DNA of 64,000 nt from Candidatus Bathyarchaeota archaeon (GCA_963807605.1 CAWECG010000003.1:1056001-1120000), one strand, 5' to 3'; positions 18,203 through 56,820 are shown, counted from the stretch's first letter. Numbers and translations: made by a program. Notes: a model not told the origin generated them from the sequence alone.

Positions 18203-18563
18203 CAAACCGTCTCCAAACATCTTTCCCGGAGTTCCGGGGTTCTTAGTCTATATGCCTAAATCAATATCTAGTTGCCTGTGATACTCCTTTAGGAATTGTG
18301 TTCCGATAAGAACAATGTACGTATTTCTTTTTTGATCCTCAGCAGGAACTCTAGCGCGCGCTAGCTTGAGAGTTTCGGAGCTAACTTAGCCGTCATGCCC
18401 AAGACGAGTGTGTTATCTCTCTCGGCCGACTCGTTGACATTGGGATTGCTAAGTGTGGGTTCTAATGATCTGCTCGAACGAGACATCGCAAACATACGCA
18501 CAATAAAGGACAACATGAGTATGCAATAGTGTCGCCAAAACTCTTCCTTCAAAGCTAATTCTT

Positions 18564-18794
18564 CTAGCAGATCATCTTAGCGCCGCATTTTCGACATTTC
18601 TTCTTGTGTGGAATGTTTACCGCGCCGCATTCCGGGCAACGTCTAAAAGTGCGCTCAGGCGTGAAGGATCTTCCACAACTGATACAATTCTTGATATCAG
18701 GTGGGTTCTCAGTTTTGCATTGAGGACATATCAAGACTTTCAAACCTTTGAGAATCGCTGGGGTAAGACGATTAAGTCCTGTGAAGCAGGACAA
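18564..18794 (-). CDS. Double zinc-ribbon protein
   Basis: Four CxxC pairs (CPQC, CISC, CPEC, CRKC). True start may be slightly downstream. Confidence 0.75.
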   Translation of the reverse strand: MSCFTGLNRLTPAILKGLKVLICPQCKTENPPDIKNCISCGRSFTPERTFRRCPECGAVNIPHKKKCRKCGAKMIC

Positions 18795-19003
18795 CTTACA
18801 TATGAACTTTAGCTGGTTCAGGTCAGCTGTAGGCCTACCGTCTATAGCTTAGCATGCCCCTTACGGACAAAAATTGAATAAAATCATCCCTCTTAGCCCC
18901 AGAATTAGCCGAGTTGTAAATCCAGCATTCTCACTGTAGGCTAGCCTATAGTAACAACTAATTAATACATGAATTACTGCATACATAATGCTAGGAATCG
19001 TAG

Positions 19004-20626
19004 ATGAGGCGAATTCCCCTTCAGTCATACTTTACAGTTTTTTTGGTCATAACCCTCCTTTTGCTTCCGCTTACTAGGCCACTCGGTGTCCAAGCGCAGA
19101 GCGTGAGTACGGTACACACATATGTGAATATTACACCAACTTGTGCTCTGCCTGGTCAGAAAATGACAGTGACAATCAACGTAAGTGTCACAGGCACTGG
19201 CGGTGGGGGTGTTGCTCCTGTTGATGTTTCTCTGGTGATTGATAGAACAGGCAGCATGTTTGGACAGAAATTTGCGGATGCTCAGGCTGCAGCAGAAGCC
19301 TTTGTTGAAACCCTACAGAATACAGATAGAGCTGATGTGATAGGTTTCAGTACGACTGTCCAGATCGCAAGAGATTTTACGTGGGCTAATACGACTGGAA
19401 AGGCTGCACTTGTGACTGGTATAGAAAATATAATACCTCCTTACGGCTACACAAATCTCTACGCTGGATTGCAGGCAAGCGTGCAAAACACTACAGCTAA
19501 AGGAAGAGCCGTTGCCAGCAAAGCTATAATCCTCCTAACTGACGGTAGACCGAATGTTGGTGTAACTACATCTTCAAAATTCATACAGTTAGCCCAAAGT
19601 GCTTCTGCAAACAACATTAGAGTTTATACAATTGGGCTTGGTGGGCCTTTAGTATCAGATCCTGTGAATGCATCGTTGCTGCAGGATATAGCGACCGCAG
19701 GTAATGGGCAATATTTCTTTGCTCCAACAAGCTCTCAGCTTAAAACCATATACCTCCAGCTTTCTACTCTCATCAGAGGACCTCCCGCCGAGAATGTCCG
19801 TGTCACGGAGACGCTGCCAACCTCAATCGTAACCTATGATAATGATGCATCTCAGCCGCCAAACTCTACAACTACGAATACGCTCTTCTGGCAAATCCCA
19901 CTTATAGCGGTGGGAACCTATTGGTCGGTCACATTCACTGTCACCGCGCAGAAACGTGTAGCCGTCGTGCCGACCATCAGCCAAACAACTGTCATCTACG
20001 ATCAAGCTGGACAGCTAGACATACGGATAGACCAACCACCGGCCATGACAGTTACACAAGTTGCAGTAACCAGCATGGGAGCATCAACTACCACTGCAAC
20101 TCAAGGCACCGTAGTAAATTACAACGCGACAATTGTAAATCTAGGATTGACCGCAGAAACCTTCGTTGTAGGCCTCATTGTCAATACAACCAGCGTTGGG
20201 CAGACCTCAGTCACCCTTGCCAACGGGACTTCAACAGTCGTACATTTCAGCTGGAATACTACAAACACGTCTCCCGGAACTTACAACGTCTACATAATCG
20301 CCGACCCTGGCAAGACCATAAGCTGCGAGGACCTCACAAATACCACCAGAACAACGACGTTGACTATTACGCCGCAAGCTGTAGGCTCAATACTTCCATT
20401 GTTGCTGATAATCTTAATTCCACTGGCGATAATTCCTATTGCTGCCGCAGCATTGTTGGGTAAAAGGAGAAGGTACGGATCGCCCCCGCGCTCGGTGCCT
20501 CGGGCTGTCAGTGGCCCCCTTAGCATGGTGCCTGCGCGTATGCTCTGTGCTAGGTGTGGCGTGCCCTTGGTGTACTATCCTGACGCCGGAAAGTGGTATT
20601 GTGCCCGCTGCGGAAAATATGCCTAA
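19004..20626 (+). CDS. Cell-surface VWA domain protein with CARDB/Ig-like domains, TM anchor and cytoplasmic zinc ribbon
   Basis: Signal peptide, MIDAS DRTGS..T..LTDG, Thr-rich beta domains, TM helix, CARC..WYCARC tail. Confidence 0.85.
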   Translation: MRRIPLQSYFTVFLVITLLLLPLTRPLGVQAQSVSTVHTYVNITPTCALPGQKMTVTINVSVTGTGGGGVAPVDVSLVIDRTGSMFGQKFADAQAAAEAFVETLQNTDRADVIGFSTTVQIARDFTWANTTGKAALVTGIENIIPPYGYTNLYAGLQASVQNTTAKGRAVASKAIILLTDGRPNVGVTTSSKFIQLAQSASANNIRVYTIGLGGPLVSDPVNASLLQDIATAGNGQYFFAPTSSQLKTIYLQLSTLIRGPPAENVRVTETLPTSIVTYDNDASQPPNSTTTNTLFWQIPLIAVGTYWSVTFTVTAQKRVAVVPTISQTTVIYDQAGQLDIRIDQPPAMTVTQVAVTSMGASTTTATQGTVVNYNATIVNLGLTAETFVVGLIVNTTSVGQTSVTLANGTSTVVHFSWNTTNTSPGTYNVYIIADPGKTISCEDLTNTTRTTTLTITPQAVGSILPLLLIILIPLAIIPIAAAALLGKRRRYGSPPRSVPRAVSGPLSMVPARMLCARCGVPLVYYPDAGKWYCARCGKYA

Positions 20627-20701
20627 GAAATGGAAATCGGGTCAGGCTCGCCCCAAACCTCCCCATCTTCTTTGCTCGTATTGAATAAGCAACTAACCTA
20701 C

Positions 20702-21994: not shown

Positions 21995-22115
21995 CTACGT
22001 GTCCTCGTCATTACTAAACAGCAAAAAAATCTTGAATGAGAAGGACATCAGAACTTCAACGCTGACTTCTTTAAAGCTTTATTTGGTCTGGCCTCGATTT
22101 ATTGTTTGAAAAGTT

Positions 22116-23024: not shown

Positions 23025-23170
23025 CCGCCGCGAGTACACTCAACAGTTAGGTTGCATAGGTTAGAACCGGTTTGTTGCTCTCTCGGGTCTGACTCTATCT
23101 ATGTAACTATCGCCAAGGAATTGCAGCCCAAGATCGCACTAAGAGTATATACTGGTAGTTCACCCCGCGC

Positions 23171-24296
23171 GAGCTTCTTGCAATATTATATTTTCTGTGT
23201 TAATTTTGTGAACTGGATTGGTGACCGCATTTTATCGATGTGTCCGTGCTTGATCGCGGATAAGGCAGTTGCCAGTAGAGCCAGCAGACAGAGAAGTACA
23301 TGTGATATGACGTTTCTTAGGCCGCGTGTTCGAAGCTGAGACAATCCGAAGTGTGTCTTGAGTCTTGAGAATGTTCTCTCCACTGAGGATCGACGTTTAT
23401 ACAGTTGTTTCAGACGGGCAGGTCCGTGTGAGCGGAACTTCCGGTCGATTCGTAGAACCTGTTTGCCCTTCATCTGGTTTCTAGGGTAAGGTATGATTGG
23501 TTCTATGCCCATAGATCTTGCCTTGTCTCTGAAAGCTTCGCTGGAGTATTGTGAGTCTGCAGTCATGCTCTTCCACCTATGTTTCTTCTTCAATGCTTTA
23601 TGGAGGAGGTGGGGTGCAACTTTTTTCTCATTTACATTTGCAGGTTCTATGGTGACTGCCCGCGGCATCTCGCTGATGGTGTCTACAGCAAGGTGTATGC
23701 CGTAGCCTAAGATCACGTTTCTACCTTGTTTTCGTAATCTGGCTTCAGAATCGGATAATCCACACTGGGTATTGTGAGGATCTCTTCGACTGTAAGCTTT
23801 GATGAATGTGACGTCTAACGCTAGGATTTCAGAGTCCAGAATGTCCATGTGGTCAAGCTGTTTGATCAGACGGTTCATGAGGCGGTGAAATCCTTGAGGG
23901 CCTATTCTACGTCGAAACCTCAGAAGTATTGATGGGTGATATGGATTCTCTGATTCCTTGATGTCGCAGAGTTTGCAGAGTTCACCGTCGCTCCATAGAA
24001 GTCGGTATAGTTCCTCGTAGCTTTCTATGTGTCTTAGCCGTTTGACAAGCTCTGCTTTGAACATTCCAAGTAAATTTCTATGGGGTCTGCCGACGCTGCT
24101 TCTTCTTCCATAGCTTCTTTCTAAGACTTGTTCTACAAACGTTAAATCCAAAGCCTGAAACAGATCATACAGAGCCTTACACTCGCTCACTTCTTTTTCA
24201 CCAGAAACGGCATGAGTGGGTGTAAAGCTCATCGATCTTATGATCAAAAACACGTATACATCTTCATGTTAAGCCCAAGAATATTGCAAGAGGCTA
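23171..24296 (-). mobile_element. IS5/IS1182-like insertion sequence (1126 bp), 17-bp TIR, GCGC TSD
   Basis: TIRs GAGCTTCTTGCAATATT / AATATTGCAAGAGGCTA (15/17); GCGC at 23167-23170 and 24297-24300. Confidence 0.9.
23186..24253 (-). CDS. DDE transposase (DDE_Tnp_1 type)
   Basis: LDVTFIKA, GYGIHL, PANVNE, ADSQY, YKRRSSVERTF, RGL. Confidence 0.92.
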   Translation of the reverse strand: MFLIIRSMSFTPTHAVSGEKEVSECKALYDLFQALDLTFVEQVLERSYGRRSSVGRPHRNLLGMFKAELVKRLRHIESYEELYRLLWSDGELCKLCDIKESENPYHPSILLRFRRRIGPQGFHRLMNRLIKQLDHMDILDSEILALDVTFIKAYSRRDPHNTQCGLSDSEARLRKQGRNVILGYGIHLAVDTISEMPRAVTIEPANVNEKKVAPHLLHKALKKKHRWKSMTADSQYSSEAFRDKARSMGIEPIIPYPRNQMKGKQVLRIDRKFRSHGPARLKQLYKRRSSVERTFSRLKTHFGLSQLRTRGLRNVISHVLLCLLALLATALSAIKHGHIDKMRSPIQFTKLTQKI

Positions 24297-24471
24297 GCGC
24301 GCTACCCAACAATATTGTGGGTACAACCCTTGCCAGAATGATTCTTCAGCACCGGCCTAAGTCGACAGCACGGGTCCGTCCCAAAGCTCCTGGGGTGGGA
24401 TTTGAATGGGAGAGTTAGCTACAGCTTACGTAGTGGTGAATAGCAACGACAGCTGGGAAGCCTCAGCGTCT

Positions 24472-25251
24472 TCAATTGAGCCTCCATATCGCGATCTGTT
24501 CTGTCCTTCTATACTGAATCTTCCTTTCTGCCGCCTCTACTGACAGTGACGAATGCACTTCTCGTATTACCTTCTCAAGCACATCGTCTGGAATGTCAAG
24601 AGTACGCCTGAAAGCACGTTTCTCGATGTAAGACAATCTGTCATTGATGCTTGTCTCAATCAATTCATCTTGAAGGTTAATCAGTTCCGTTGGCGGGATA
24701 GTTGCCAGAAGCTCTCTTTCCTTTCTTCGCCACTCACCGGCATGGATAGACAAAGTATATCCAACCTTTGCCGCGGCTTCTTGAAGAGCTTGCCACATCA
24801 AGTTATTGCCGCCCCCGTACGGTTCGCTATCTTGTTGTTTCCGGACGAGTGCGACGATCTCCTTCGTGACCACGCCGGTAACACTTCGAAAGATTCCGAC
24901 CGGGTCTTCAAATATGTGAAGAACGTGAACGAAAATTGCCGCATCAAACGACCTCGCTTTTATGGGCAAGTGACTTGCATCTGCCAGAATTAGCCTCTTG
25001 ATTCTCTTTTCTCTCGCCCTCTGAATCATGCCTATAGAGATGTCCACACCGACAATCTTGAGATTCCTGTCCTGAAGTGGTTTCGCAACTCGTCCCGTTC
25101 CTACTCCTAACTCTAATATGGTGCTACATCCGTCTCTTGCGAGAATGCTAACGATCTTTTCGACGGTTGCCTTCTTCAGTGGAGTTCTCGTCTCATCATA
25201 AACTTGTGAAATCCTATCAAACTGGGTAGCCGTGTTTATGACTTGGCTCAT
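24472..25251 (-). CDS. Class I SAM-dependent methyltransferase
   Basis: ILELGVGTG, GVDIS..M, ADASHLP....FD. Confidence 0.9.
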   Translation of the reverse strand: MSQVINTATQFDRISQVYDETRTPLKKATVEKIVSILARDGCSTILELGVGTGRVAKPLQDRNLKIVGVDISIGMIQRAREKRIKRLILADASHLPIKARSFDAAIFVHVLHIFEDPVGIFRSVTGVVTKEIVALVRKQQDSEPYGGGNNLMWQALQEAAAKVGYTLSIHAGEWRRKERELLATIPPTELINLQDELIETSINDRLSYIEKRAFRRTLDIPDDVLEKVIREVHSSLSVEAAERKIQYRRTEQIAIWRLN

Positions 25252-25303
25252 TTACCTTTCACCGGGCCGTCATTGATCTGTGCTCATGAAAGAAGATGAG
25301 TTT

Positions 25304-25338
<35 letters not shown>

Positions 25339-25628
25339 CTTCCCTGCCCTAATCAAACTTGCACTGCTGGGTCTCTTACACTTTCCGTCGTCCTACCATT
25401 ATCGGATTTGACAAGTGCGAATGGGTTTAGACAGGGTCCACGTTGAACCCGTTCCGCAGTGCTCGCCTCAGATGCCAGAGTTTTAAACACGCTACTTGTT
25501 ACCTCATGAAAAGTTTTGCTGGCATGGTTGATTGCTCCGCTTGGGGTGGAAAAATTGAACGTGATGACTTGCAATATGTGAAATGGGTGAGGGCGTAAGA
25601 CCTGAGCAATCATAAATGTCAAGATTCC

Positions 25629-25795
25629 ATGATAGAAGTTAAGGATCTGACCAGGAGTTTCGGGACGCTCATAGCCATCAGCAAACTGACTTTTGCGGTC
25701 AGCCAGGCGAAGTCTTCGGTTTGCTGGAGCCGAAATGATGCGGCGTCTTGAGATTGCTAGGAAGCTCATCCATTACCGGAATGTCCTGTTTCTCG
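25629..25795 (+). pseudogene. ABC transporter ATP-binding subunit remnant
   Basis: MIEVKDLTRSFG..GEVFGLL.P, then an internal deletion, then RRLEIARKLIH..VLFL. Ends within Walker B at the CGCGCGCGCG motif. Confidence 0.8.
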
Positions 25796-25803
25796 CGCGC
25801 GCG

Positions 25804-26185
25804 TAGTCTAAGCCTACTATGAGGCCTATTCATCTATCGAAGCTACTAGTTCATGGGGTATATGAGCGTAGAATCTACGCACAAAATCATAGTATGATAA
25901 GCATAGGTTCATAGTGCTTCTAAGCTTCATCAAAGCTTGCTCAAGCTTAACCTAAGCTTAACGCCAAGCTTCCCCAGCTTCAGCTAGAACCATATACGAA
26001 TACAGCTAATATAAGCTTAGGAAGCTTGAAGAAGCTTATCTTAAGCTTATGATAAGGCTTGAAAGCTATGCTTTAGAGGCTTCATCATACTAACTTTAAG
26101 GCTTGATAGTATGCTTTGGGATGATGAAATACTATAACTTTTGATGATGAAACTATGCTAATCATCATCTATAATCATGATTGAA
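25804..26185. repeat. AT-rich element with phased AAGCTT palindrome array
   Basis: AAGCTT at 25922, 25933, 25943, 25954, 25966, 26013, 26022, 26032 and 26043, plus many one-mismatch copies. Outer inverted repeat 25895-25912 / 26147-26164 (16/18). Confidence 0.85.
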
Positions 26186-26191
26186 GCGCGC

Positions 26192-27296
26192 TGGGTTGTC
26201 CCGATATTAGCGTTTTCATGTTAGGTTTGTCCAGTGTGTTATGCTTCTGGTTTTGGTGGGTTGTTTGGTGTTGTGTGAGGCTTCTATGGTGTAGAGTAGG
26301 CATAGTATGCAGTAGCTGGTGTGGATGGTGATGTTTTCTAAGCCTCTTGTTTTGTGATTGTTGAGGGTGAGGTGTTCTTTGAGTGATGCGAAGACGAGCT
26401 CTATGGTTGAGCGTTTCTTGTAGATGCGTTTGAGGTTTTCTGGGCCGTGTGTTTTGAAGTCGCTGGTTACTCTGAGGATGTTTTGTCTTTCAGGGTTCTG
26501 GTTGGCTGGGTAGGGTATCGCGGTCTTGATTTTGTGTCTTTTAGCGGTCTCTCTGAGTCTGTTGCTGGAGTATTGACTGTCAGCGGTTAGCTGTCGGATT
26601 CTGATTGCTGTGGTTTTAACTGTCATTTTGAGGAGTGGTATGCTGAGTTTCTTCTCGTTAGTGTTTGCTGGTGAGATGAGGAAGGCTAGGGGTGTCCCTG
26701 TGTCTGCATCGACTGTGAGGTGTAGTTTGTAACCTAGGCTGTATGTGCGGTAGGCTCTTCCTACACGGGCTTCAGGGTCGCTGAAGCCTGTTCTATTGTT
26801 TATGTTGCGTCTGCTGTAGGCTTTGATGAAGGTAGCGTCCATAGCGACTATCCTGGGTTTTGCTATGTGTTTCTTCAGCAACTTCTTGACCTGTTTGTTT
26901 ACTATGCGTCTTAGTCTTCTTGCGCCTAGCCGCTGGTTGAATCTTGAGAGTACCGTCCTACCGTACGCTGGCTCCTCATATCTTATGCCGCATATGTCAC
27001 GTAGCCTCTCATCATGACATAAGTGGCGTTCAAGATCACGCAGACTGCTCATTCTCAGGTAGCGTCTGGCGAGGTGTGCCTTGAAGAGTCCTAAGGGGTT
27101 TCGTGGAGGTTTACCTGGACCGTCTTGATGATAGCAGCTAACAATGAGGCGTTCAACAAACGATAAATCCAGATTACTCAGCAGTGACTCCAGAGTCTCG
27201 TACCCTTCTATCTGGAATCGCCTCCAAGTAGAAGGGTGTGGGGCTCAAACCATATGGATCTTTCCGTGTCAACTCAAAGAATATCGGGACAAGCCC
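26192..27296 (-). mobile_element. IS5/IS1182-like insertion sequence (1105 bp), 17-bp TIR, GCGC TSD
   Basis: TIRs TGGGTTGTCCCGATATT / AATATCGGGACAAGCCC (15/17); GCGC at 26188-26191 and 27297-27300. Confidence 0.9.
26216..27249 (-). CDS. DDE transposase related to 23186-24253; 5' end disrupted (frameshift or stop near 27210-27248)
   Basis: MDATFIKAYS, GYKLHL, PANTNE, ADSQY, YKKRSTIE. Homology (LDLSFVE..PPRNPLGLFKA) extends upstream of the annotated ATG at 27052. Confidence 0.88.
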
Positions 27297-27313
27297 GCGC
27301 GCTACCCTAAACA

Positions 27314-27426
27314 TGGTGGACCGGGCGGGATTTGAACCCGCGACCTTCCGGTTTCTTGATAGACGCTTGCAAACCGGACGTTCCTTGGTCTATCTAAACT
27401 AGCATACCAAACTGAACTACCGGCCC
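27314..27426 (-). tRNA. tRNA-Ala(TGC) with two introns (D-loop, 21 nt; 37/38, 15 nt), CCA encoded
   Basis: GGGCCGG/CCGGTCC acceptor stem with G3:U70; TCCGG-TT-TGC-A[intron]A-CCGGA; GGTTCAAATCC T-arm. Confidence 0.9.
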
Positions 27427-27546
27427 ACATTCTCTGTCTAGGTGATAACCTCCACAATTTAATCTTTCTTTGTTTTTTGTAGGCAAGATCCATTTGTTGT
27501 CTATACCTCGCAATTCTTCTCATGATTCATATCGATGATTAATTCA

Positions 27547-27880
27547 TGGTTAGGGTTTCACAACGCCTAGGTGGTTCAGACAGAGTACGTGGGTTGCCCT
27601 GACAGTCACAAACATAGGGACATCCATGGTCACTTTGGACTCCAGCATACTGATCGTTGGTTTGCCAATCCTGCTGAATGAGCTAAACGCATCTCTAGTT
27701 CACGGCGTCTGGATAATTCCACGGCATCTGGATAATTACGGGCTACAGGCGAGCCATTACAATCCTTCTGGTGGCAATAGGATAGATTGCCGACATGCTC
27801 AGCAGGGTAAGACTCTACGTTTTGGGATTCGCAGTCTTAACACTTGCTTCGGCAATATGTGGCTGGTCGCAGAGTGGCGC
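27547..27880 (+). pseudogene. DHA2-type MFS transporter remnant
   Basis: WVALTVTNIG..MVTLDSSILIVGLP..WII..GY..G*IADM..RVRLY..GF. Contains an 18-bp tandem duplication (27701-27737) and an internal stop. Truncated at GCGCGCGCTA. Confidence 0.8.
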
Positions 27881-27940
27881 GCGCTATCAAGCGAAAGCTC
27901 TTTGGAACTGCACACGGTCGGATGACTAAGTTGAGATGAG

Positions 27941-28088
27941 GGCCGCCGCGGGGAGTTTCACATCAACTCAGGATGTTTTGAACCCCGCCTCCAGGCTCCA
28001 TTGGCCAAGGCCTTTCCTGGGCCTTTCAGGCCTGTACGCTACCAAGCTCCGCAGAGATTTGCTAGGTCCCTTCTACGTTACGGCGGCC
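27941..28088 (-). tRNA. tRNA-His(GTG) with three introns (15/16, 34/35 within the anticodon, 59/60); G-1 encoded
   Basis: Removing BHB-flanked introns of 26, 26 and 22 nt gives CAGGC-CT-GTG-GA-GCCTG with the G-1:C73 His identity pair. Confidence 0.82.
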
Positions 28089-28185
28089 ATCGTTCTCTTT
28101 TGAGGAAGCTGTGAGAAATTTAAGCGTTTAGTGAACCCAGCGGGGAATTATCTCCGACTTTATTATTCAGACTTGACAATTTCTC

Positions 28186-28743
28186 TTGAAGGTCTTGTAC
28201 TTGGACGATTTTGGAGTCTTGGTTGGTTCCAGAAGGATCTATGACGGCAAGGTCATCAGCCTAAGGATCGACAATTTTCGCTCTCCCAGCGGGAGTGTCT
28301 TCGAGCGTGAAGTTGTTGAGCATCCCGGGGCTGTTGCGATCCTACCATTTCTGGATAATGGGCAATTATTGTTAATCAGGCAGTATCGGCATGCTGCAGG
28401 CAAAGTGCTTCTTGAGATTCCTGCTGGTACGCTGGATGACCGTGAGAAGCCTGAGGATTGTGCACGACGTGAACTTGTTGAGGAGACAGGTTACGAAGCG
28501 CAGGTTATGAAAGAAGTACTAAGTTGCTTCTTGGCGCCTGGTTACAGTAGTGAGAAGATTCACATCTTCCTCGCATCCAAGCTGAGGATGGTGGGTTCTA
28601 GGCACGAGATCGACGAGTCGATTGAAATTGAGCCGACAGATGTTAAGAGGGCTGAAGCCATGATAAACAATGGAGAGATAATTGATGCTAAGACCATAGC
28701 TGGGATAGCCTTCTTTCTATTGACAAAAGGCTCGCGAAGATGA
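28186..28743 (+). CDS. nudF: NUDIX hydrolase (ADP-ribose pyrophosphatase-like)
   Basis: REVVEHPGAV, QYRH, EIPAG..E..RELVEETG, DAKT. Confidence 0.88.
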   Translation: MKVLYLDDFGVLVGSRRIYDGKVISLRIDNFRSPSGSVFEREVVEHPGAVAILPFLDNGQLLLIRQYRHAAGKVLLEIPAGTLDDREKPEDCARRELVEETGYEAQVMKEVLSCFLAPGYSSEKIHIFLASKLRMVGSRHEIDESIEIEPTDVKRAEAMINNGEIIDAKTIAGIAFFLLTKGSRR

Positions 28744-28784
28744 ATCCCAAGGTTTATTTTTTGACTAGATAGATTCATGTTGGT

Positions 28785-28950
28785 GCGGGGGTACCCGAGA
28801 CCTCGCAGAAGTTTGCGAGGCAGGAATCAGGCCAAAGGGGCAGGGTTACAGGCAAGCAAGCCTGTAATGCCAGACTTAAGATCCTCACAAAAGGTATGAG
28901 CCATCCTGTGGCGTAGGCCTTCGTGGGTTCGAATCCCACTCCCCGCACCA
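28785..28950 (+). tRNA. tRNA-Leu(TAA) with three introns (15/16, 30/31, 37/38), CCA encoded
   Basis: Spliced form GCGGGGGTACCCGAGTCAGGCCAAAGGGGCAGGACTTAAGATCCTGTGGCGTAGGCCTTCGTGGGTTCGAATCCCACTCCCCGCACCA with a long variable arm. Each intron forms a hairpin with BHB-like junctions. Confidence 0.9.
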
Positions 28951-29205
28951 ATCTAATGGTACTCGTAAATACCATTTCCAGCGCAATTAACGTGCGCCAG
29001 TAAGTTCACGGACAGCGCCAAGAATGTAGTTTCGACGAACAATCCCGAAAGCCTGAGGAAGCATTCAAGACACGGACAATGCTAAAACAAAGAAATCCGC
29101 AAAGCGATCTGTGGCATCACAGCTATTCCTTAGAAGCAGGCATCAACACGTTTTCTTGCTGGTAAACTGGTGCATGTGCATGATTCCGTCCCAGACCATT
29201 TTATT

Positions 29206-29649
29206 CTATGTAGTCTTCCTCCTGCACCTTTCACAGATACCATAAATGTCTAGGCGTTGGCCTGTGACGGTGAACCTTGCGGTTGCAGCTGCTCTTGCAA
29301 TAGTCTCTCGTGCGCCTCGATCATCGATGTCGTTAACGGCCCCACATCGCAAGCAAACAACGTTCAGGTGAGGCTTCATATACGAGTCGAATCGTGACAC
29401 GCTATTCGAAAAAGGCAATTCTTGGACTAATTGCAGCTTTTTGAGCACTTGAAGTGTCTTGTAAACTGTGGCAAGGCTGACGGTGGGATGTTCTTTCTTA
29501 ACTTCTCCGTAGATTCCTTTTGCTGTAGGATGCTCTCGACTAGAGAGTGCGAGCCGGCAGATGGCTATTCTCTGCGATGTTGCCTTGTATCCTTTCCGAC
29601 GGAGTGCTTCAATTATCAACTGATCAGATGATATCTCACTGAGCCTCAT
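29206..29649 (-). CDS. perR: Fur/PerR family transcriptional regulator
   Basis: TSQR, HPTA, SLATVYKTL, CxxC..CxxC; divergent from catalase. Confidence 0.85.
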   Translation of the reverse strand: MRLSEISSDQLIIEALRRKGYKATSQRIAICRLALSSREHPTAKGIYGEVKKEHPTVSLATVYKTLQVLKKLQLVQELPFSNSVSRFDSYMKPHLNVVCLRCGAVNDIDDRGARETIARAAATARFTVTGQRLDIYGICERCRRKTT

Positions 29650-29676: not shown

Positions 29677-29730
29677 CACTCTTAAATATTTCAAGAAAAG
29701 AATCTCTACTTGAAATGTGGTAATGGAATC

Positions 29731-31179
29731 ATGAGCGGAAAAAAACAGTTGACGACGAATCAGGGAGTTCCGATCACTGACAACCAGAACTCGTTGACCG
29801 TCGGTGAACGTGGGCCGGTGTTGTTACAAGATGTCGAATTCATCGAGAAGATGGCCCATTTTGACAGAGAGCGTATTCCCGAAAGGGTTGTCCACGCTAA
29901 GGGAGCAGGCGCACATGGATATTTTCAGGTTTACAAGAGCATGGCACGTTACACTAAAGCGAAATTCCTCCAAGATCCGAAAAAGAAGACTCCTGTATTC
30001 GTAAGGTTCTCCACTGTTACAGGAGGACGGGGTTCTGCAGATACAGTAAGAGATCCACGGGGCTTTGCCGTCAAATTCTATACCGAAGACGGAAATTACG
30101 ACCTGGTAGGGAACAACCTGCCCGTGTTCTTCATTCGTGACGCCATAAAGTTTCCAGATATGGTTCACGCCTTCAAGGGCGCACCAGATAACAATATTCC
30201 ATCAGCCTCTTCCGCACATGACAGTTTTTGGGATTTTATCTCGCTGACACCTGAATCGACCCACATGATTATCTGGCTATTCACCGACCGCGGGACACCA
30301 AGAAGTTACAGGATGATGGAGGGCTTCGGTGTTAACACCTATCTATGGGTGAATTCTGACGGAAAGCCGACCTATGTCAAATACCATTGGAAACCGAAAG
30401 CGGGGGTACAGTGCCTTGACCGTCATGAAGCAACTCGACTGGCCGGTGCGGACCCCGACTACCTTACGCGTGATCTCTGGAATACTATTGCTGGCGGAGG
30501 AGAAGTCGAGTATGACCTCTACGTCCAGCTTATGGAAATCGCTGACGAATTAAAACAAGAATTCGATCCACTTGACCCTACAAAGACTTGGCCTGAGGAT
30601 AAACTCCCGCTAATACCAGTGGGCAAAATGGTGCTAAATCGTAACCATAACAACTTCTTTGCTGAGGTCGAACAGGCAGCCTTCTGCCCCGCCAGTATCG
30701 TTCCAGGAATAGAGTTTTCTGCTGACAAGTTACTTCAAGGCCGAACATTTTCCTATGCAGATACTCAACGCCATCGATTAGGACCGAACTACCTACAACT
30801 TCCCATTAACAAGCCAATAGTCGAGGTCAACAATAGCCAGCGTGATGGAGCAATGCAGTTGGGTAATTTTAGCGGGCCAGTCAATTATGAGCCCAGCAGC
30901 ATAGCTGATGGTTCACCCGTGGAGGCTCCAGCGGGCACGCCACACATATATCGAGTTGAGGGAGAAATCACTCGTCAGAAAATTAATAAGACTAACGACT
31001 TCGGGCAAGCTGGGGAAAAGTATCGTTCTCTTAGTAAGACAGACAAAGAGCACCTAGTGGATAACCTAATCGCCGATCTTATGCACGTTGATAAACCGAT
31101 TCAACAGCGAGCAATTGAGAATCTGACTAAGGCTGACCCTGATTTAGGTAAATCCGTGGCTGCAGGTTTGAAACGTTAG
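29731..31179 (+). CDS. katA: Monofunctional heme catalase (small subunit)
   Basis: FDRERIPERVVHAKG, VRFSTV, RDPRGFAVKFYT, VGNN, RTFSYADT. Confidence 0.96.
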   Translation: MSGKKQLTTNQGVPITDNQNSLTVGERGPVLLQDVEFIEKMAHFDRERIPERVVHAKGAGAHGYFQVYKSMARYTKAKFLQDPKKKTPVFVRFSTVTGGRGSADTVRDPRGFAVKFYTEDGNYDLVGNNLPVFFIRDAIKFPDMVHAFKGAPDNNIPSASSAHDSFWDFISLTPESTHMIIWLFTDRGTPRSYRMMEGFGVNTYLWVNSDGKPTYVKYHWKPKAGVQCLDRHEATRLAGADPDYLTRDLWNTIAGGGEVEYDLYVQLMEIADELKQEFDPLDPTKTWPEDKLPLIPVGKMVLNRNHNNFFAEVEQAAFCPASIVPGIEFSADKLLQGRTFSYADTQRHRLGPNYLQLPINKPIVEVNNSQRDGAMQLGNFSGPVNYEPSSIADGSPVEAPAGTPHIYRVEGEITRQKINKTNDFGQAGEKYRSLSKTDKEHLVDNLIADLMHVDKPIQQRAIENLTKADPDLGKSVAAGLKR

Positions 31180-31353
31180 AGTTCGCACAGAAACTTCACA
31201 ACCAACTTCCACCAACAGCACTGTGGGATACAACAGCACGTATCCCCCGTCCCACATTCGAGGTTCGAACAGGCACGCCAATACAGATGAAGCGCGCGCT
31301 AGAAGACATACCGACTACGCGCGCGCGTACTAGATGAAGAGGCTTCCTCGAAA

Positions 31354-35182: not shown

Positions 35183-35354
35183 TGAAGCGCGCACTAGTGT
35201 TATCCACACACAGAAGACCATACATCCCAGTCTTGGAATCGTACACCTAGGATTTTTTCCGGTCCAAACTCATCTGAGAACTTCTCTATAATCAAAATGC
35301 ATCCAAACCCGAAGAATTTCTGTAGATTCGTAAATGTTTGAAGATTCATTGAGT

Positions 35355-40197: not shown

Positions 40198-40431
40198 ATG
40201 CCAAGGAGAAAGGCTTCTAGCGCGCTATCAGATGTTTTGAGTTCTGCTGAAAGGCTGAAGGATAGCATTGCGGCTGTGCCAGTTGAAATTCAAGATAGGA
40301 TTAGAGAGCTGGCTATGGCGATAGTCAGCAAACCTGTAAAGCGGCGTGGTCGTCCGCCGAAGAAAAGAGGGAGGCCACGGAAGAGAGGCAGACCGCGCAA
40401 GCCCAAGACAGAGACGCCCACTCAAGTATAG
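40198..40431 (+). CDS. Small basic protein with three tandem AT-hook-like motifs
   Basis: KRRGRPPKKRGRPRKRGRPRK; TATA-like CTTAAATTATATA upstream. Confidence 0.8.
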   Translation: MPRRKASSALSDVLSSAERLKDSIAAVPVEIQDRIRELAMAIVSKPVKRRGRPPKKRGRPRKRGRPRKPKTETPTQV

Positions 40432-45771: not shown

Positions 45772-45857
45772 CCTAGGATCTACGCGCGCGCGTATCAACA
45801 GTACACCAAGAACCCTATATTTGAGGGATCAAGCATAGATTCCACCTTCCTTAGGTT

Positions 45858-46961: not shown

Positions 46962-47166
46962 ACTAGGAGGCTCACGCGCGCGTCGAGTATTGAGGAAAAT
47001 AAGAAAGTTGGCAAGTAGTGCGCAGGTGAACGCGTGCGTATCCAAAATGGGTCAGACTGAACGACAATCTCAAGATATCGCAAACTGACCGTAGCTTAAA
47101 TAACCACGACCTAAAAAACACAGAAGAAAAGAATGGTCGTCCGTTCCTAGCGAGCGCTAAAGTTAT

Positions 47167-47526: not shown

Positions 47527-48034
47527 GATATGTCTACACTCATTAGCTACCGATCAGATTATTAAAATGTGTGATAGATTGAAGCCCAACTATATCCCAT
47601 GAGATTCAAGCAGTGGAGAAGGGAATGAAGAACCACCACTATCGGCATAATCTATTTTAGATATTCCCAAACGCGTGAGACACCACTTCATGAGGCCGTG
47701 TTTGCAGCTACTAAATTTATCTATTCTCCAACGTACATACGTCAGGCAGAAACAGTTATCTTAAGTAGAAACAAAAGTAGAACACAATAGCCTAGGAGCG
47801 TTTAGCTTAATGGAATCCAATATGTCGACTCCAGAGGAAGTTGCATGTCCCGTCACCACCAAAGATACCGGCAAGTAAATTGAGTATTTTTTTGTCACAA
47901 CCAATTTGTTCTTTCAGATTTCTTGTATTTTTGACCGGATTACTTTGTTGTATGCGGTTTGACGCCAAGACCTGTTGACAAAGTGCGCGCTTTTAGAACT
48001 CTAGGTAAAATGAGTGGAATTGTTGAATAGAGGT

Positions 48035-51414: not shown

Positions 51415-51510
51415 TGGATATCGTAGCACGCGTCTGCAACCCCATATTCTAGACCGCGCGCTAACGAGGTCAATATGGAACACTTTTTTCTGAAAGGATT
51501 TGTTTTACTG

Positions 51511-51982: not shown

Positions 51983-52243
51983 CTATTTCGCTGAGTGGTC
52001 TTCTGTCCGAGCGCGCGCTATCTCACTTGTATTCTTGACAAACGGATCGTGTTCATGGGCGACTCGAAGGGCCTCTATGAGAGAAGGGTCTGTAACAACT
52101 ATGAAGTGCCAAAGTTGCTTGTTTGCGGCCGAGGGCGACAGTCTCCCAGCCTCAAGGATACGCTCAAGCTTTCCCTTCTCCACGGGTCTTGATTTGTATC
52201 TTCTTATACTTCTCCTTACGCGTATCGCCTCGAATACATCCAT
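51983..52243 (-). pseudogene. Nitroreductase N-terminal fragment
   Basis: MDVFEAI..RRSIRRY, LSPSAANKQ.WHFIVV. Homology ends around the GCGCGCGCTA motif (52011-52020). Confidence 0.8.
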
Positions 52244-52388
52244 TTTGAACTCCTCTTTGCAAACTAATCTCTGGCCCAAATACTTTAGGATTCCAGTGTC
52301 AGCTTGATCTTCTTCTAAAGATGCGTCGAAGACGCAGACGTTCAGTTGAAAAAAAGTCTTGAGCTGGTTTGAAATCATCGGTGAGAAG

Positions 52389-54595: not shown

Positions 54596-54828
54596 AACCC
54601 TCTCTCCCCAATCAAGTTGAAAATTACCCTGCAGTGATTCTTGGAATCACCTTCTATGGATTGACTAACAGTGAGTATATGAGATTTGGTGGAGGTAAAG
54701 GAGCGAACTAAGTATCATCTGACTAACCAACATTGACAGAACGGCTACTTGTAGCGGCTGCTATCCTTTGGACGATATCCATAGATTGTGCCGCTTGTCA
54801 CAAAAATAAAGATGGAAAACGCGCGCCG

Positions 54829-55854
54829 TCAAGGCATGACTACGGCTCTTATGGCTTCTCCTCTTCTTACCAACTCTAGGCCATCATTTACTCTGTCCAG
54901 AGGGAGCCTGTGGCTGATCAAGGGTTCCAACTTGAACTTTCCATCTCTAACGAGGTTAACGACCTCAATAGTTTCGTACTTGGAACTGGCACGCGAACCG
55001 ACGATTTGGAGCTCCCCCCTAACGAGTCTCCTTGGGACCAAGGTGAGATTGTCTTCTGAGTATCCAATGAAGACCAGCTTTGCTCCTCTCGCCAGTATAC
55101 TAAGAGCGTCGTTCATTGTCTTAGTTCTGCCGACAAATTCATAGACGATGTCAACGCCCCGTGCACCGACGAGTCTCTTAACCTCTGTTGGCAAGTCCTT
55201 CTCTTTTGAATTGACTGTGTAATCTGCTCCCAAGGACTTTGCTACCTTCAACTTATCCTCTTGAACATCTATCGCGATGACCGTGGCGCCACTAAGCTTC
55301 GCCATCTGAAGTGTGCACAGTCCGACGCCTCCAGACCCGATTATAGCAACTGTATCACCAAGTCTCACTTTCCCGACCTCTCTTACCGCATGGTAGGCCG
55401 TTGAGCCAGCATCAACGAGTATGCCCGCCTCGTACGGCACCTCGTCAGGCAGCTTGACTATGCTTCTGGATGGAGCTTTAGCGTATTCTGCATAACCACC
55501 ATCTACAGTAAAACCAAACTGTTTGAACTGTGAGCTGACGCATAGATTCTCTCGCCCCCGCTGGCAGTAGTAGCACTCGCCGCAACTGAAGTAAAAGTGA
55601 ATGAGTACCCTATCTCCTACCCTGAATTCTTTGACATCTCTGCCGACCTCGGCCACTTCTCCAGCAGCCTCATGACCCATAATCTGAGGAATCTTCCCGG
55701 GCTTGTACAATCCCTCATCGACGAAATGGAGGTCGGTATGGCATATTCCACAGGCATTTATTCTGACCAGAACTTCTTTTGGTGATATCGTTGGCTTTTC
55801 AACATCCTCTATCCGAAGGGGTTGACCAACCTCATAAAATCTAGCAGCCTTCAA
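54829..55854 (-). CDS. Zinc-dependent alcohol dehydrogenase
   Basis: CGICHTD, GHE, CxxCxxC...C, GSGGVG. Start placed at TTG (KAARFY); the ORF is open to 55917. Confidence 0.92.
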   Translation of the reverse strand: MKAARFYEVGQPLRIEDVEKPTISPKEVLVRINACGICHTDLHFVDEGLYKPGKIPQIMGHEAAGEVAEVGRDVKEFRVGDRVLIHFYFSCGECYYCQRGRENLCVSSQFKQFGFTVDGGYAEYAKAPSRSIVKLPDEVPYEAGILVDAGSTAYHAVREVGKVRLGDTVAIIGSGGVGLCTLQMAKLSGATVIAIDVQEDKLKVAKSLGADYTVNSKEKDLPTEVKRLVGARGVDIVYEFVGRTKTMNDALSILARGAKLVFIGYSEDNLTLVPRRLVRGELQIVGSRASSKYETIEVVNLVRDGKFKLEPLISHRLPLDRVNDGLELVRRGEAIRAVVMP

Positions 55855-56085
55855 ATCACATCGCGGGTTGAGATACCCGCCTCGAAAAATAAAAGTATCT
55901 GTCGAATCCTGCACCACGCTTGGAAATGTTCTTTAATGGGGTTCCACGTGCTACTCTTGTTCGTGTAGGATAGCCGTCTGCGATCTATGGAAGTCTATCC
56001 AGTGGCGTGCAGTCAACTTGATCCGCAGCGTAGTTTGGCAGCTAAAGAGCTTTGCATAGCGCGCGTTCAAAGGACGAGATGAACT

Positions 56086-56658
56086 TTGACAGCGTTACCG
56101 AGAAGATTCTACGAAAGAGATCCCGAAGTGGTTGCTAGGGATTTGCTTGGAAAAAAATTGGTCAGGAGACTGTATGGGAAAAGCCTCGAAGGAATTCTGG
56201 TCGAGACAGAGGCCTATTATGGCTTAAAAGATCCCGCCTCGCGAGCATATAAGGGCATTAAAGTCTACAACAAACCGTTGTGGGGCGATGCGGGAAAGGC
56301 CTTCATCTACAACGTTCACAAGTACTGGATGCTAAACGCAGTTGCTCACCAAGCCGGAGAAATCGGTGCAGTTCTAATCAGAGCCCTGCAGCCAACCGAG
56401 GGCATAGAGATTATGAAGAGAAACAGAAAGGTAAAGAATATCATTGAACTCACAAGTGGACCGGGCAAGTTGACGGAGGCTCTTCAGATCGATAAGAAGT
56501 TGAATGAAGAGTGTCTTACCACTGACGAGGCTGAAGCGTTCATTGCACAGAACGAGATGAAATTCAAGATCGAGAATTCGCACAGAATTGGTGTCAAAAG
56601 AGATCTTAAGAACAAACTCAGGTTTTTTATAAAAGGAAATGAATTCGTTTCAAAGTGA
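56086..56658 (+). CDS. mpg: DNA-3-methyladenine glycosylase (AAG/Mpg)
   Basis: ETEAY, DPAS, AVLIRA, GPGKL, RIGV. Confidence 0.93.
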   Translation: MTALPRRFYERDPEVVARDLLGKKLVRRLYGKSLEGILVETEAYYGLKDPASRAYKGIKVYNKPLWGDAGKAFIYNVHKYWMLNAVAHQAGEIGAVLIRALQPTEGIEIMKRNRKVKNIIELTSGPGKLTEALQIDKKLNEECLTTDEAEAFIAQNEMKFKIENSHRIGVKRDLKNKLRFFIKGNEFVSK

Positions 56659-56820
56659 TGGAACCCGCGCGATGCTCACACCCCTATTGTGCTCTCCATA
56701 TTGCTTGGGGTGTACGCGTGCCAACCGGATCGATTTTGAAAACAAAATTCCTTTTGGAATAGCTATGGCAAGAATTTATTAATGGTTCACATCAGGCATT
56801 AGGCAAACGGCGGGTCAATT

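Follow-up and report, generated by a model that had tools for sequence, protein, structure and literature searches.

Short TA-flanked CG tracts in a Bathyarchaeial genome match the tips of resident insertion sequences

Cut-and-paste DNA transposons such as Tc1/mariner, the P element and hAT leave excision footprints and remnants of abortive gap repair, in which a few terminal letters stay at the donor site and flanking DNA is often lost; these scars accumulate in non-coding DNA. In MITEs and mobile insertion cassettes, the ends of insertion sequences (IS) surround passenger DNA without a transposase. Bacterial REP/BIME palindromes are targeted by the elements IS1397 and IS621, the REPs being imperfect hairpins of 20–40 nt that are transcribed and often conserved in place. 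For IS1272, a member of the IS1182 family, insertion into inverted-repeat targets without duplications has been reported, the targets being stem-loops of 21–85 bp and varied sequence (PMC5678879).

The short alternating C/G tracts of the Bathyarchaeial genome under study (G000) resemble the footprints of Tc1/mariner, the P element and hAT in that the solo word corresponds to the tips of resident elements and is located at deletion joints. They differ in their occurrence in an archaeon and on a genome-wide scale (about 370 intergenic runs with a length of at least 7 nt), in tips that form a perfect CG palindrome and in the lack of visible flanking target duplications, excision being putative here. 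As in MITEs and insertion cassettes, segments of 388–1111 nt are bounded by IS-type tips, some of them in two copies and some with a single gene inside (mpg, leuB, the C_GCAxxG_C_C gene), but the "end" comprises only 6–10 nt, far below the usual inverted repeat, the copy number is 1–2, and the insertions replace resident DNA instead of merely interrupting it. Like REP/BIME, the tracts are abundant lineage-specific intergenic palindromes tied to one IS group; unlike these, they are 8–12 nt long, loopless, subject to fast turnover and located at broken joints. The exchange in place of single genes between palindromic sites recalls integron gene cassettes, whereas attC sites measure 57–141 nt and the sites found here form no arrays, have no common orientation and are scattered over all spacer types. 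The resident elements share with IS1272 transposases scoring best with the IS1182 and IS5 models of NCBIfam (both below cut-off), the lack of a consistent target duplication and one copy located in a flank palindrome; they differ by their fixed, loopless CG word of 8–12 bp, which the evidence favours as part of the element over a target.

The window, i.e., the whole stretch of 64,000 nt that was analysed, contained an alternating C/G run of 6–10 nt at all 15 places named in the original prediction, whose coordinates comprised the run plus its TA flanks (Table 1). Six additional runs of at least 6 nt had been missed, four of which form the termini of two insertion sequences of IS5/IS1182-like type; the other two lie at 40220-40225 and 59335-59340. 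CGCGCG was observed 24 times in the window against an expectation of 6.05 (SD 2.68), a count reached by none of 100 dinucleotide-preserving shuffles, and a chance origin of the tracts in the window is excluded. Runs of 6 nt form a weaker class with A/T flanks in only about half of the cases.

Table 1. Insertion sequences, alternating C/G runs and associated features in the window.
Feature	Position	Strand	Basis or context
Solo CTA-GCGCGCGC-TAG	18354-18361		in 783-nt divergent spacer
IS-A insertion sequence, 1137 bp, 7 genome copies (end runs 23166-23171, 24297-24302)	23166-24302	-	copy and end comparison
IS-A transposase ORF	23186-24253	-	DDE_Tnp_1, 102.1 bits vs cut-off of 23
Solo (CG)5	25794-25803		inside block bounded by IS-A and IS-B
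IS-B insertion sequence, 1120 bp, 7 genome copies (end runs 26186-26191, 27296-27302)	26185-27304	-	copy and end comparison
IS-B transposase ORF	26216-27052	-	42% identity to IS-A transposase
Solo GCGCGCGC-TA	27877-27884		about 25 nt past transporter-like gene fragment, whose blastx matches end at about 27851
Two runs, GCGCGCGC (31292-31299) and (CG)5 (31318-31327), 18 nt apart	31292-31327		113 nt downstream of catalase gene
GCGCGC	35187-35192		5 nt past SDR gene stop
Solo TA-CGCGCGCG-TG	37193-37200		between DUF92 and EamA genes; junction conserved in G008
TA-GCGCGC-TA 6-mer	40220-40225		within small-protein-like fragment; weak, possibly unrelated
Solo TA-(CG)5-TA	45783-45792		divergent spacer upstream of DUF362-FeS gene; junction conserved in G002 and G008
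Solo CGCGCGCG	46975-46982		14 nt past DUF362-FeS stop
GCGCGC 6-mer without A/T flanks	47985-47990		junction conserved in G008; possibly chance
Solo CGCGCGC-TA	51455-51461		96-nt spacer between glyoxalase-type gene and UPF0047/yjbQ
Nitroreductase remnant (run 52011-52018)	51983-52378	-	blastx vs ORFs of four relatives
CGCGCGC	54820-54826		2 nt past ADH stop
mpg cassette	56059-56671	+	GCGCGCG 56059-56065, mpg 56086-56658, CGCGCG 56666-56671
CGCGCG	59335-59340		within coding region; most likely unrelated background

In the 2.65-Mb genome, GCGCGC (938 observed, 636 expected under a fourth-order Markov model) and CGCGCG (789 and 538, respectively) were the two most over-represented of all hexamers. 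Based on crude gene calls (2731 genes, 81% coding), the ratio of intergenic to coding density was 4.6, 13.3, 28.4, 31.0 and 11.5 for runs of 6, 7, 8, 9 and 10 or more nt; the anticipated intergenic enrichment was thus found, with runs of 8–9 nt (172 intergenic and 26 coding for 8 nt) being about 30-fold denser between genes than within. The core motif is A(GC)4T. Runs of 8–9 nt are preceded by A (–1) in 77% and followed by T (+1) in 79% of cases; position –2 is T in 39% and position +2 is A in 47%. No conservation was seen farther out, and direct repeats correlated across both sides of solos were not seen, the frequency of TA..TA being that expected for independent flanks. Run density per kb was equal in tandem (0.68), divergent (0.77) and convergent (0.86) spacers, and no fixed distance between runs and gene starts or stops was found genome-wide.

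The resident insertion sequences end in (GC)3–4. The ends of IS-A read CGCGCG-AGCTTCTTGCAATATT ... AATATTGCAAGAGGCTA-GCGCGC, those of IS-B A-GCGCGC-TGGGTTGTCCCGATATT ... AATATCGGGACAAGCCC-GCGCGC-TA. The right end of IS-B adjoins a tRNA-clan match at 27314-27426 on the minus strand (Rfam clan CL00001, under the gathering score), where ARAGORN found no tRNA. Two parts of the original view are supported, namely that borders of mosaic DNA are marked by the tracts and that a transposase is tied to these. We consider the tracts to be transposon-tip footprints and tip-bounded cassettes with a probability of about 0.5. TA-flanked (CG)n tracts would then be characteristic of the termini of IS5/IS1182-like DDE insertion sequences from one Bathyarchaeial clade. 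When an element leaves its site, or its interior is lost in gap repair, only the self-complementary tips would remain, and since these can pair immediately, the break may be sealed as one CG palindrome of 8–10 bp, with flanking DNA often being lost in the process. Copies of the element could then recombine, or tip-bounded DNA could move in trans, so that swapped genes come to be flanked by tracts. Being harmless in non-coding DNA, tracts would accumulate there, and their equal density across spacer types and lack of a fixed distance to genes fit a pattern of neutral scars. Direct evidence from filled and empty sites is thin, consisting of one diverged local-duplicate pair, with GCGCGC-TAGA following a truncated repeat ...AACGATTCAAATA at C3:255,995 and GCGCGC-[IS-B]-GCGCGC-TAGA following the same truncated repeat 800 bp away, and of one weak contig joint (23075 to 27314; one run only, 29 letters on the short side). 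Self-comparison of the genome revealed neither intermediate forms nor solo inverted repeats besides the full copies and one 273-bp IS-A fragment.

Solo tracts lie at joints where segments have been deleted, duplicated, truncated or replaced, and some non-coding or single-gene segments have a tract on both sides. Among the 447 runs that are at least 7 nt long, 8 could be compared with a paralogue; in four of these, the paralogue shows unrelated letters (ACCCTA, CATCAC, 17 nt) or nothing at all in place of the run. The CG letters of solos are thus imported DNA, taking the place of 0–17 nt of the original. Among 1092 self-BLAST pairs, there were 67 whose homology stopped at a run in each of the two copies, with just 0.56% of the genome lying as close to a run. 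The described placement at the broken ends of remnants holds statistically: 30 of 440 ends of intergenic blastx fragments were within 5 nt of a run, the corresponding figure for random positions within these spacers being 1.6%. In the window, the run at 18354 is directly followed by a remnant of 53 codons (18365-18523; 81% to residues 50–102 of a 387-aa G000 protein by blastx), and this tract looks conserved in a strain of about 97% identity because the X1 contig spanning 18001-18649 shows no listed change or joint there. The nitroreductase remnant keeps residues 2–80 and then 164–178 of its relatives of about 180 aa, covering only Pfam positions 1–54 of 167, and its deletion joint at 52010 coincides with the run. 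An 88–91% DNA match to G001 stops at 35186, directly at the run 35187-35192, whose neighbours are on other contigs in G001, G002, G008 and G012. The catalase gene has a DNA identity of 87% to G001, compared to 67–73% for neighbouring genes. The segments C4:12110-12515 and C3:558757-559144 are each bounded by runs and present in a further copy, an 820-bp, 98%-identical block carrying a C_GCAxxG_C_C gene ends at runs as well, and the in-place replacements mpg and leuB have a run at each joint.

Comparison with G002 (417 kb) pointed in the same direction as the original prediction that synteny breakpoints fall at tracts, with runs of 7 nt or more at 3 of 142 conserved and 29 of 284 non-conserved junctions, but this excess was absent for spacers of 200 nt or more (3/15 conserved, 18/106 non-conserved). 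Among the postulated gene modules, that of mpg is a real in-place replacement: its product matches Pfam Pur_DNA_glyco and it occupies the place of a C_GCAxxG_C_C gene (PF09719) present at 9/9 loci in relatives, with an amino acid identity of 69% to G027 from another family and of 59% to the copies in G001 and G008, which sit elsewhere. Several of the others are resident genes whose surroundings have changed. ADH and yjbQ keep their place in relatives; the spacer from ADH to the next gene measures 233 nt in G000 and about 1.2 kb in six related loci, two G001-like ones having runs on both sides of the extra DNA, and G008 has 3.5 kb in place of the 96-nt spacer before yjbQ. On the far side of the run at 45783, the DUF362-FeS gene has kept the gene to its left, and the gene following the run at 46975-46982 is found on a different contig in both G002 and G008. 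DUF92 remains next to the EamA gene on the other side of 37193, and the presumed kinase at 35355-36068 has no Pfam match.

The best-surviving alternative, still an unlikely one, is that a putative lineage-specific end-joining process adds or copies self-complementary (CG)n tails at breaks independently of IS, so that any two ends could pair and each repaired joint, including those of captured foreign genes, would receive a tract, the IS tips being convergent or themselves such joints. The exchange of 0–17 nt for a run, seen in paralogues that are otherwise collinear, would fit such repair, as would the run at the internal nitroreductase deletion, the runs at both joints of the mpg and leuB replacements, and the 27 of 65 short inter-run segments that duplicate DNA found elsewhere in the genome. 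In the strain of about 97% identity, 37139-37214 is exchanged for ACGCGCGCGC (joints in X1, side 112, and X3, side 194), and both edges of the run at 37193 thus differ, a sign of turnover that, like the mostly unshared run positions of G000 and G001-like contigs, also counts for the transposon-tip reading. Random tailing should, however, yield both phases, variable lengths and arbitrary flanks, whereas the tracts are a defined word, A(GC)4T, with A..T flanks in 122 of 172 intergenic 8-mers (71%) and a prevailing GC phase, and on this account the word would equal the IS tips by coincidence.

Somewhat less probable still is the original view of the tracts as landing sites, according to which A(GC)4T palindromes arise otherwise and receive IS5/IS1182-like elements in their middle, where a duplication of the inner 4–6 bp would produce flanking half-sites that merely resemble tips. 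An 8-bp (GC)4 target with a 4-bp duplication would give exactly the 6 + 6 nt of all IS-B ends, GCGCGC as a 6-bp duplication would fit the 6-bp repeat of one G008 copy, the target choice reported for IS1272 is similar, and one IS-B copy is located within the 8-nt flank palindrome TTCGGATA|TATCCGAA. However, all 14 resident copies have uniform 6-nt CG tips (A/T-GCGCGC at 14/14 ends of IS-B, GCGCGC or CGCGCG in IS-A), whereas solos vary in length (7–10 nt) and flanks; the letters beside the tips vary with the subfamily and not with the insertion site. T at –2 (5/7) and A at +2 (7/7) are commoner at IS-B than at solos, and A..T is found outside the ends of IS-A in only about 2/7 copies, compared to the 71% of 8-nt solos. 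Related copies in G001, G002, G008 and G012 likewise end in CG runs, and G018, a member of a different family with one motif in its genome, contains a 32%-identical relative with T-GCGCGCGC-ATGAGTG at both ends; CG-tipped relatives thus occur in genomes with just 1–4 motif copies. The direct repeat of the G008 copy (TAGACT) lies outside the CG tips, end runs can be unequal (8 and 5 in the G001:C343 copy), and the origin of the solos would be left unexplained. The uniform tips, subfamily-dependent neighbours and CG tips in motif-poor genomes make the tract look like a part of the element, not its target.

A host function, i.e., binding sites of a family-specific protein, or Z-DNA-prone structures or very stable GC clamps retained under selection in AT-rich spacers for a role in organising the chromosome or insulating transcription, would fit a palindromic word conserved across genera, its strong exclusion from coding DNA and the Z-DNA sequence criterion, which alternating CG of 8 nt or more would satisfy, but is very improbable given the absence of any positional relation to gene starts and stops, the equal density in all spacer types, run positions that are mostly unshared between G000 and G001-like contigs and among genomes of genus g3 at one locus, the near absence of the word from sister genera, the nature of runs as insertions relative to paralogues and at broken gene ends, and the decay of some runs by transitions.

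The transposon-tip reading has its own difficulties. The preferred length of 8 is not simply derived from 6-nt tips, TA-type outer flanks are rarer at solos than at IS-B, and Tn5-type DDE_Tnp_1 enzymes are known to leave clean flanks, not tip remnants. Copies of AGCGCGCGCT numbered 106 in G000, 0–119 in 15 family members and 0–3 outside the family; the motif is specific to one Bathyarchaeial family, in which the A(GC)4T-type palindrome occurs across at least six genera with a genomic GC content of about 36% to 51% and is nearly absent from the sister genera g5 and g8. G008 and G012 possess the transposase but only 4 and 2 motif copies. A search for DDE_Tnp_1 transposases yielded none in G003, G010 and G013, genomes with 63, 44 and 40 copies of AGCGCGCGCT, a finding that also favours IS-independent repair; the 15 solos examined in G013 have unique flanks. 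As these three are draft metagenome bins (370, 190 and 50 contigs; 94, 80 and 74% complete), multi-copy elements may be unassembled, but the absence is a genuine gap in the transposon-tip reading. Since the tracts match IS tips and coincide with places at which genes have been cut, copied or swapped, we take them as probable scars of mobile DNA and not as control signals; on the transposon-tip reading, they would mainly represent scars and cassette borders of transposon activity.

The source genome comprises 2,653,217 bp in five contigs with 46–48% G + C; the window corresponds to C3:1056001–1120000, and an archaeal 16S gene lies immediately upstream of it. All 15 CG palindromes listed in the original prediction were present in the window, together with six further alternating C/G runs of at least 6 nt that had been overlooked, and the observation as such was confirmed and turned out to be stronger than the first reading could reveal. 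In the window, 24 occurrences of the hexamer CGCGCG compare with an expectation of 6.05, a count reached in 0 of 100 shuffles (i.e., 24 or more), and GCGCGC and CGCGCG were the two most over-represented hexamers genome-wide (observed/expected 1.47 each in a fourth-order Markov model). The whole genome contains 768 alternating runs of at least 6 nt. Intergenic run lengths were bimodally distributed (605, 424, 166, 96, 172, 65, and 27 runs for lengths 4–10), and 122 of the 172 intergenic 8-mers were preceded by A and followed by T. The GC phase was dominant among the listed forms of these 8-mers, resulting in the motif A(GC)4T, and the intergenic 10-mers, 19 of 27 with the same A..T flanks, were listed mainly in the CG phase as A(CG)5T. 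Flank preference was moderate (T at −2 in 39%, A at +2 in 47%), and no conservation was seen past ±2 nt. The palindromes are 8–12 nt long without a loop and, as alternating purine–pyrimidine (CG)n tracts with n of at least 4, are potentially Z-DNA-forming as judged by sequence. A slippage microsatellite was ruled out by the bimodal lengths peaking at 8 nt, and an assembly artefact by the recurrence of the identical word in many independent bins, JGI contigs, and Logan contigs. The lack of conservation beyond ±2 nt and the presence of just 16 small flank clusters among the 768 runs speak against a longer repeat or MITE.

Four of the overlooked tracts were identified by self-BLAST as the ends of two insertion sequences (IS), IS-A and IS-B, whose inverted repeats in the 7 + 7 copies measure approximately 22 nt including the CG tip. 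Both transposases, which are 42% identical to each other, contain the DDE_Tnp_1 domain (PF01609; 102.1 and 93.8 bits, cut-off 23); that of IS-B is encoded on the minus strand at 26216–27052. The best NCBIfam models were IS1182 (127.7 and 118.1 bits, cut-off 270) and IS5 (IS5_4; 110 and 81.7 bits, cut-off 140), and since the scores remained under the curated equivalog cut-offs the elements are referred to as IS5/IS1182-like. All 14 ends of IS-B read A/T-GCGCGC, and the following letter varied with the subfamily and not with the site. TA on both sides of four of the seven IS-B copies is a possible target duplication; IS-A had none outside the run. The scar word A-GCGC...GCGC-T equals the resident IS-B termini A-GCGCGC and GCGCGC-T. 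Of approximately 1500 run flanks, about 27 belong to IS-A or IS-B, and the remaining runs, hereafter termed solos, have unique flanks. IS-A, a methyltransferase gene, a small ORF, and IS-B together form a composite-transposon-like block at 23076–27313, in which approximately 350 nt between a solo (CG)5 and IS-B (25830–26180) are dense in AAGCTT and related words. Immediately next to the right end of IS-B, on the minus strand, is an Rfam tRNA-clan match (27314–27426) to the tmRNA model, whose 29.6 bits fall short of the gathering score. ARAGORN detected no tRNA in 27000–29500, and the match may thus be an intron-bearing tRNA.

Features in the window that are bounded or interrupted by alternating CG runs
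Feature	Position	Length	Copies	Observation
Gene remnant	starts 18365	53 codons		directly after run 18354-18361
IS-A	23166-24302	1137 bp	7	
IS-B	26185-27304	1120 bp	7	
Short-chain dehydrogenase (SDR) gene	34424-35182			88-91% DNA match to G001 (congener) stops at 35186, beside run 35187
Nitroreductase remnant	51983-52378			residues 2-80 then 164-178 of ~180-aa relatives
mpg	56086-56658			runs on both sides, at 56059 and 56666

Among relatives, the word AGCGCGCGCT was present in 106 copies in the source genome and 119 in its congener G001, in 16–63 copies in nine more genomes of the same family (genera g2, g3, g4, and g7), in 0–5 copies in genera g5, g6, and g8, and in 0–3 copies in 15 genomes from nine other families of the order. 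A reversed control word had 0–5 copies across the compared genomes, and the same CG word was also found in genomes of approximately 36–38% G + C. The motif is a patchy, family-specific trait. A PF01609 gene was not found in G003, G010, and G013, which harbor 63, 44, and 40 motif copies, respectively; since these three genomes are draft bins, absence of the transposase is not proven and the elements may be unassembled. G013 contains 15 solos with unique flanks, and contig starts near motifs in G010, G002, and G008 revealed no hidden IS ends. G008 and G012 possess the transposase, yet have just 4 and 2 motifs.

For each of the 447 runs of at least 7 nt in the source genome, paralogues matching both flanks were sought genome-wide, and a counterpart was obtained for eight runs. 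Four of these runs have no equivalent in the paralogue, which shows unrelated letters or nothing at that position: CGCGCGCGCG faces ACCCTA, CGCGCGCGC is aligned with CATCAC, GCGCGCGC takes the place of 17 nt, and GCGCGCGCG corresponds to nothing. Three counterparts differ partly or by transitions (e.g., CGCGCGCGC versus CATGTGCGC), and one run is shared by both copies. A scar arising when a GCGC target is duplicated (AGCGCT turned into A-GCGC-GCGC-T) fitted the phase and length pattern (8-mers in GC phase, 10-mers in CG phase), but was dropped because none of the eight comparisons had AGCGCT at the empty site, the four informative ones had no GCGC there, and intergenic AGCGCT was not depleted (125 observed versus 119 expected). 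In self-BLAST, homology stopped at a run in both copies of 67 of 1092 pairs, although positions no more than 6 nt away from a run make up only 0.56% of the genome; about 20 of the 67 pairs involve DNA other than IS-A and IS-B. Among 440 ends of intergenic gene fragments, 30 were no more than 5 nt from a run, compared with 1.6% of random positions in the same spacers. The runs are also clustered, spacings below 600 bp being 2–4 times as frequent as the Poisson expectation, and 27 of 65 short inter-run segments were copied from elsewhere in the genome. Some run-bounded segments exist in two copies, and correlated flanking repeats beside solos were not detected. The CG word is that of the IS tips, the solos represent additional DNA located at joints, and there are segments with a tip at either end. 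The original interpretation was right in part: the predicted tie between these boundary marks and a transposase was borne out.

Several other repeats were noted. Among intergenic 10- and 12-mers of the genome, (CA)n/(TG)n tracts are the most frequent, with a (GT)15 tract at 25307–25336, and some CG runs look decayed to TG/CA by transitions, as in GCGCGCGCG versus GTGTGCGTG where a duplicated segment ends. Approximately 35 intergenic hairpin repeats with microsatellite arms (TAGCTGGTGAGCACACAC ... CTAACGGTTCAAAT ... GCTCTCACCAGCTA) occur outside the window (e.g., at C3:255,955–256,830 and C1:135,108), several of which end abruptly exactly at a CG run. Three repeat families of 1.33–1.39 kb with 9–16 copies each, located mostly at C4:480,000–720,000, have hairpin-like ends and no CG tips.

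The reading to which we assign the highest probability, roughly one in two, is that the runs are IS-derived, i.e., transposon tips left behind. The transposase would excise the element, or gap repair would halt once the self-complementary tips can pair, and a single CG palindrome would remain at the donor site, often with a deletion beside it. Genes that were exchanged could acquire a tract on either side when copies recombine or when tip-bounded DNA is moved in trans. A single filled/empty pair, found in diverged local duplicates, fits this proposed loss of the element: GCGCGC-TAGA at C3:255,995 and, 800 bp away, GCGCGC-(IS-B)-GCGCGC-TAGA, with the same truncated repeat preceding both forms. 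Speaking against an IS origin are the genomes with motifs and no detected DDE_Tnp_1 (G003, G010, G013), the scarcity of motifs in G008 and G012, the solos lacking correlated flanking repeats, and the preference for 8 nt, which is not simply derivable from 6-nt tips. Repair filler inserted independently of the IS would be the foremost of the alternative origins, and is considered unlikely.

Individual loci illustrate what the runs border. Outside the window, a complete leuB is preceded by a 27-codon archaeal stub and GCGCGCGC and followed by CGCGCGCGC and an archaeal C-terminal stub. Bracketing of mpg by runs, as originally proposed, held up in the comparison with relatives, where a C_GCAxxG_C_C gene occupies the mpg position in nine of nine related loci; the mpg protein shares 69% identity with one in G027, a genome of another family, and 59% with the copies of G001 and G008, which are located elsewhere. 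The source genome carries four copies of the C_GCAxxG_C_C gene at other positions, in duplicated blocks whose homology ends at, or within approximately 10 nt of, runs; one such block, 820 bp long and 98% identical, lies directly against GCGCGCGCG. The deletion joint of the nitroreductase remnant lies at 52010, on the run 52011–52018. The neighbors of the SDR gene match G001 at 67% and are located there on other contigs. The spacer between the ADH gene and the next gene measures 233 nt in the source genome and contains a single run, located at the ADH stop, the corresponding spacer in six related loci being approximately 1.2 kb; two G001-like contigs carry runs that flank this extra DNA on both sides. 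Some further peculiarities were recorded. The SDR gene of G001 is shorter by 170 nt; the catalase gene (29710–31179) and the SDR gene share 87–91% DNA identity with G001, which in comparison to the 67–73% of neighboring genes suggests recent exchange. The PALP pyridoxal-phosphate enzyme gene (17241–18220) consists of two overlapping ORFs, apparently due to a frameshift, and an 11-nt run (CGCGCGCGCGC) inside the DUF1246/DUF1297 coding region of two G001-like contigs (L062:11758 and L024:1457) is missing from the source genome.

Loci such as leuB and mpg could also be read as products of an orientation-free minimal cassette system, in which, within this Bathyarchaeial family, any DNA between two (GC)n palindromes of 8–10 bp would be a mobile or exchangeable unit. 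Its agent would be either a CG-tipped transposase acting in trans or end joining that produces self-complementary CG tails, and foreign genes (the bacterial leuB, the other-family mpg) would replace residents in place without homology; we regard this reading as quite unlikely. To our knowledge, all described inverted repeats are much longer than the ends on which such a transposase would have to act. The picture of bracketed modules is weakened by the runs at 45783 and 37193, which fall in junctions kept in relatives, and by the modules proposed for ADH and UPF0047/yjbQ, both of which are resident genes.

Synteny was compared with G002 (417 kb, 298 reciprocal best hits, median 71.5% identity). 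An association of runs with breakpoints was present in the raw counts, with runs in 29 of 284 non-conserved and 3 of 142 conserved junctions, the non-conserved class being inflated by crude gene calls and partial sampling of G002, but was largely an effect of spacer length: runs occurred in 0 of 54 conserved versus 11 of 105 non-conserved junctions with spacers of 50–200 nt, and in 3 of 15 versus 18 of 106 with spacers of at least 200 nt. The closest comparison genomes had 64–76% DNA identity over the stretch searched and are too distant for fine-scale empty sites. A JGI scan gave a best amino acid identity of 80%. Matches to sequencing runs covered small shares (0.08–0.14), and four aligned data sets yielded one strong and one weak joint. 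Logan contigs from three soil data sets (X1–X3) were approximately 97% identical to the window (e.g., 32 differences in 1277 letters). This strain retains the tract at 18354, and in two of the data sets 37139–37214, including the tract at 37193, is replaced by ACGCGCGCGC. The contig cover of X1–X3 takes in no IS-A or IS-B sequence. One contig joins 23075 to 27314 without IS-A, two genes, and IS-B, a weak joint with 29 letters on one side that gives a hint of the absence of this block from the strain. The short-read contigs of this strain aligned to the window tended to end near some tracts (31344, 35186).

The original prediction had regarded the palindromes as landing sites of a transposase, and insertion of the IS into the center of a (GC)4 site with a 4–6 bp duplication is indeed compatible with the 6 + 6 arithmetic of the ends and with a palindromic tip that is open to interpretation as a duplication of 4 or 6 bp. 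A precedent is IS1272, which is reported to insert into inverted-repeat targets (PMC5678879). Four results instead favor CG ends that belong to the element itself. No variation was seen among the 14 IS-B ends, whereas the solos vary in length and flanks, and related IS copies in G001, G002, G008, and G012 likewise end in CG runs. A relative in G018, 32% identical and from another family, has T-GCGCGCGC-ATGAGTG at both ends in a genome with a single motif; CG ends persist in genomes nearly devoid of the motif (G008, G012, G018). Finally, one G008 copy is flanked by a 6-bp direct repeat (TAGACT, two copies) that lies outside the CG tips. Use of the palindromes as landing sites is judged decidedly unlikely.

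The placement of runs relative to genes was determined with a crude gene prediction of our own, in which the longest ORFs received a codon-usage score; it gave 2731 genes and a coding fraction of 81%. Intergenic enrichment was evident, with intergenic densities 28 times (8-nt runs) and 31 times (9-nt runs) those in coding DNA. In this analysis, 445 runs of at least 7 nt were distributed over tandem (192), divergent (98), and convergent (76) spacers and gene interiors (79), corresponding to 0.68, 0.77, and 0.86 runs per kb of tandem, divergent, and convergent spacer, and genome-wide they showed no preferred distance to a gene start or stop. The lack of a positional peak and the equal density across spacer types argue against a promoter or terminator element, and a functional motif of the host is highly improbable.

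Transposon footprints and tip-bounded cassettes are known kinds of structures, of which the CG runs described here would represent a variant. The runs differ from REP-like or IS1272-type stem-loop targets by having no loop and by the uniform half-sites of IS-B, and from integrons, whose tandem cassettes are separated by attC sites and lie beside the integrase, by being dispersed genome-wide in every spacer type with no array seen. With regard to MITEs or mobile insertion cassettes, run-bounded segments exist in two copies, and shared run flanks form 16 clusters. In the literature searched, neither the motif nor CG-tipped archaeal insertion sequences were described.

For annotation, a tract within an ORF points to a broken gene, the nitroreductase being one case. 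If the cassette reading were true, a new and very small recombination system would bear on gene uptake in archaea. If the runs are IS-derived, they would attest to a transposon with palindromic tips through which the donor site can reseal, a design undescribed in the literature searched. A(GC)4T would then record, legibly in the sequence, where DNA once broke and mobile elements passed in an uncultured archaeal lineage. This word would locate gene deletions, duplications, and swaps to the base, among them the replacement of residents in place by foreign genes, which is usually inferred from trees only.
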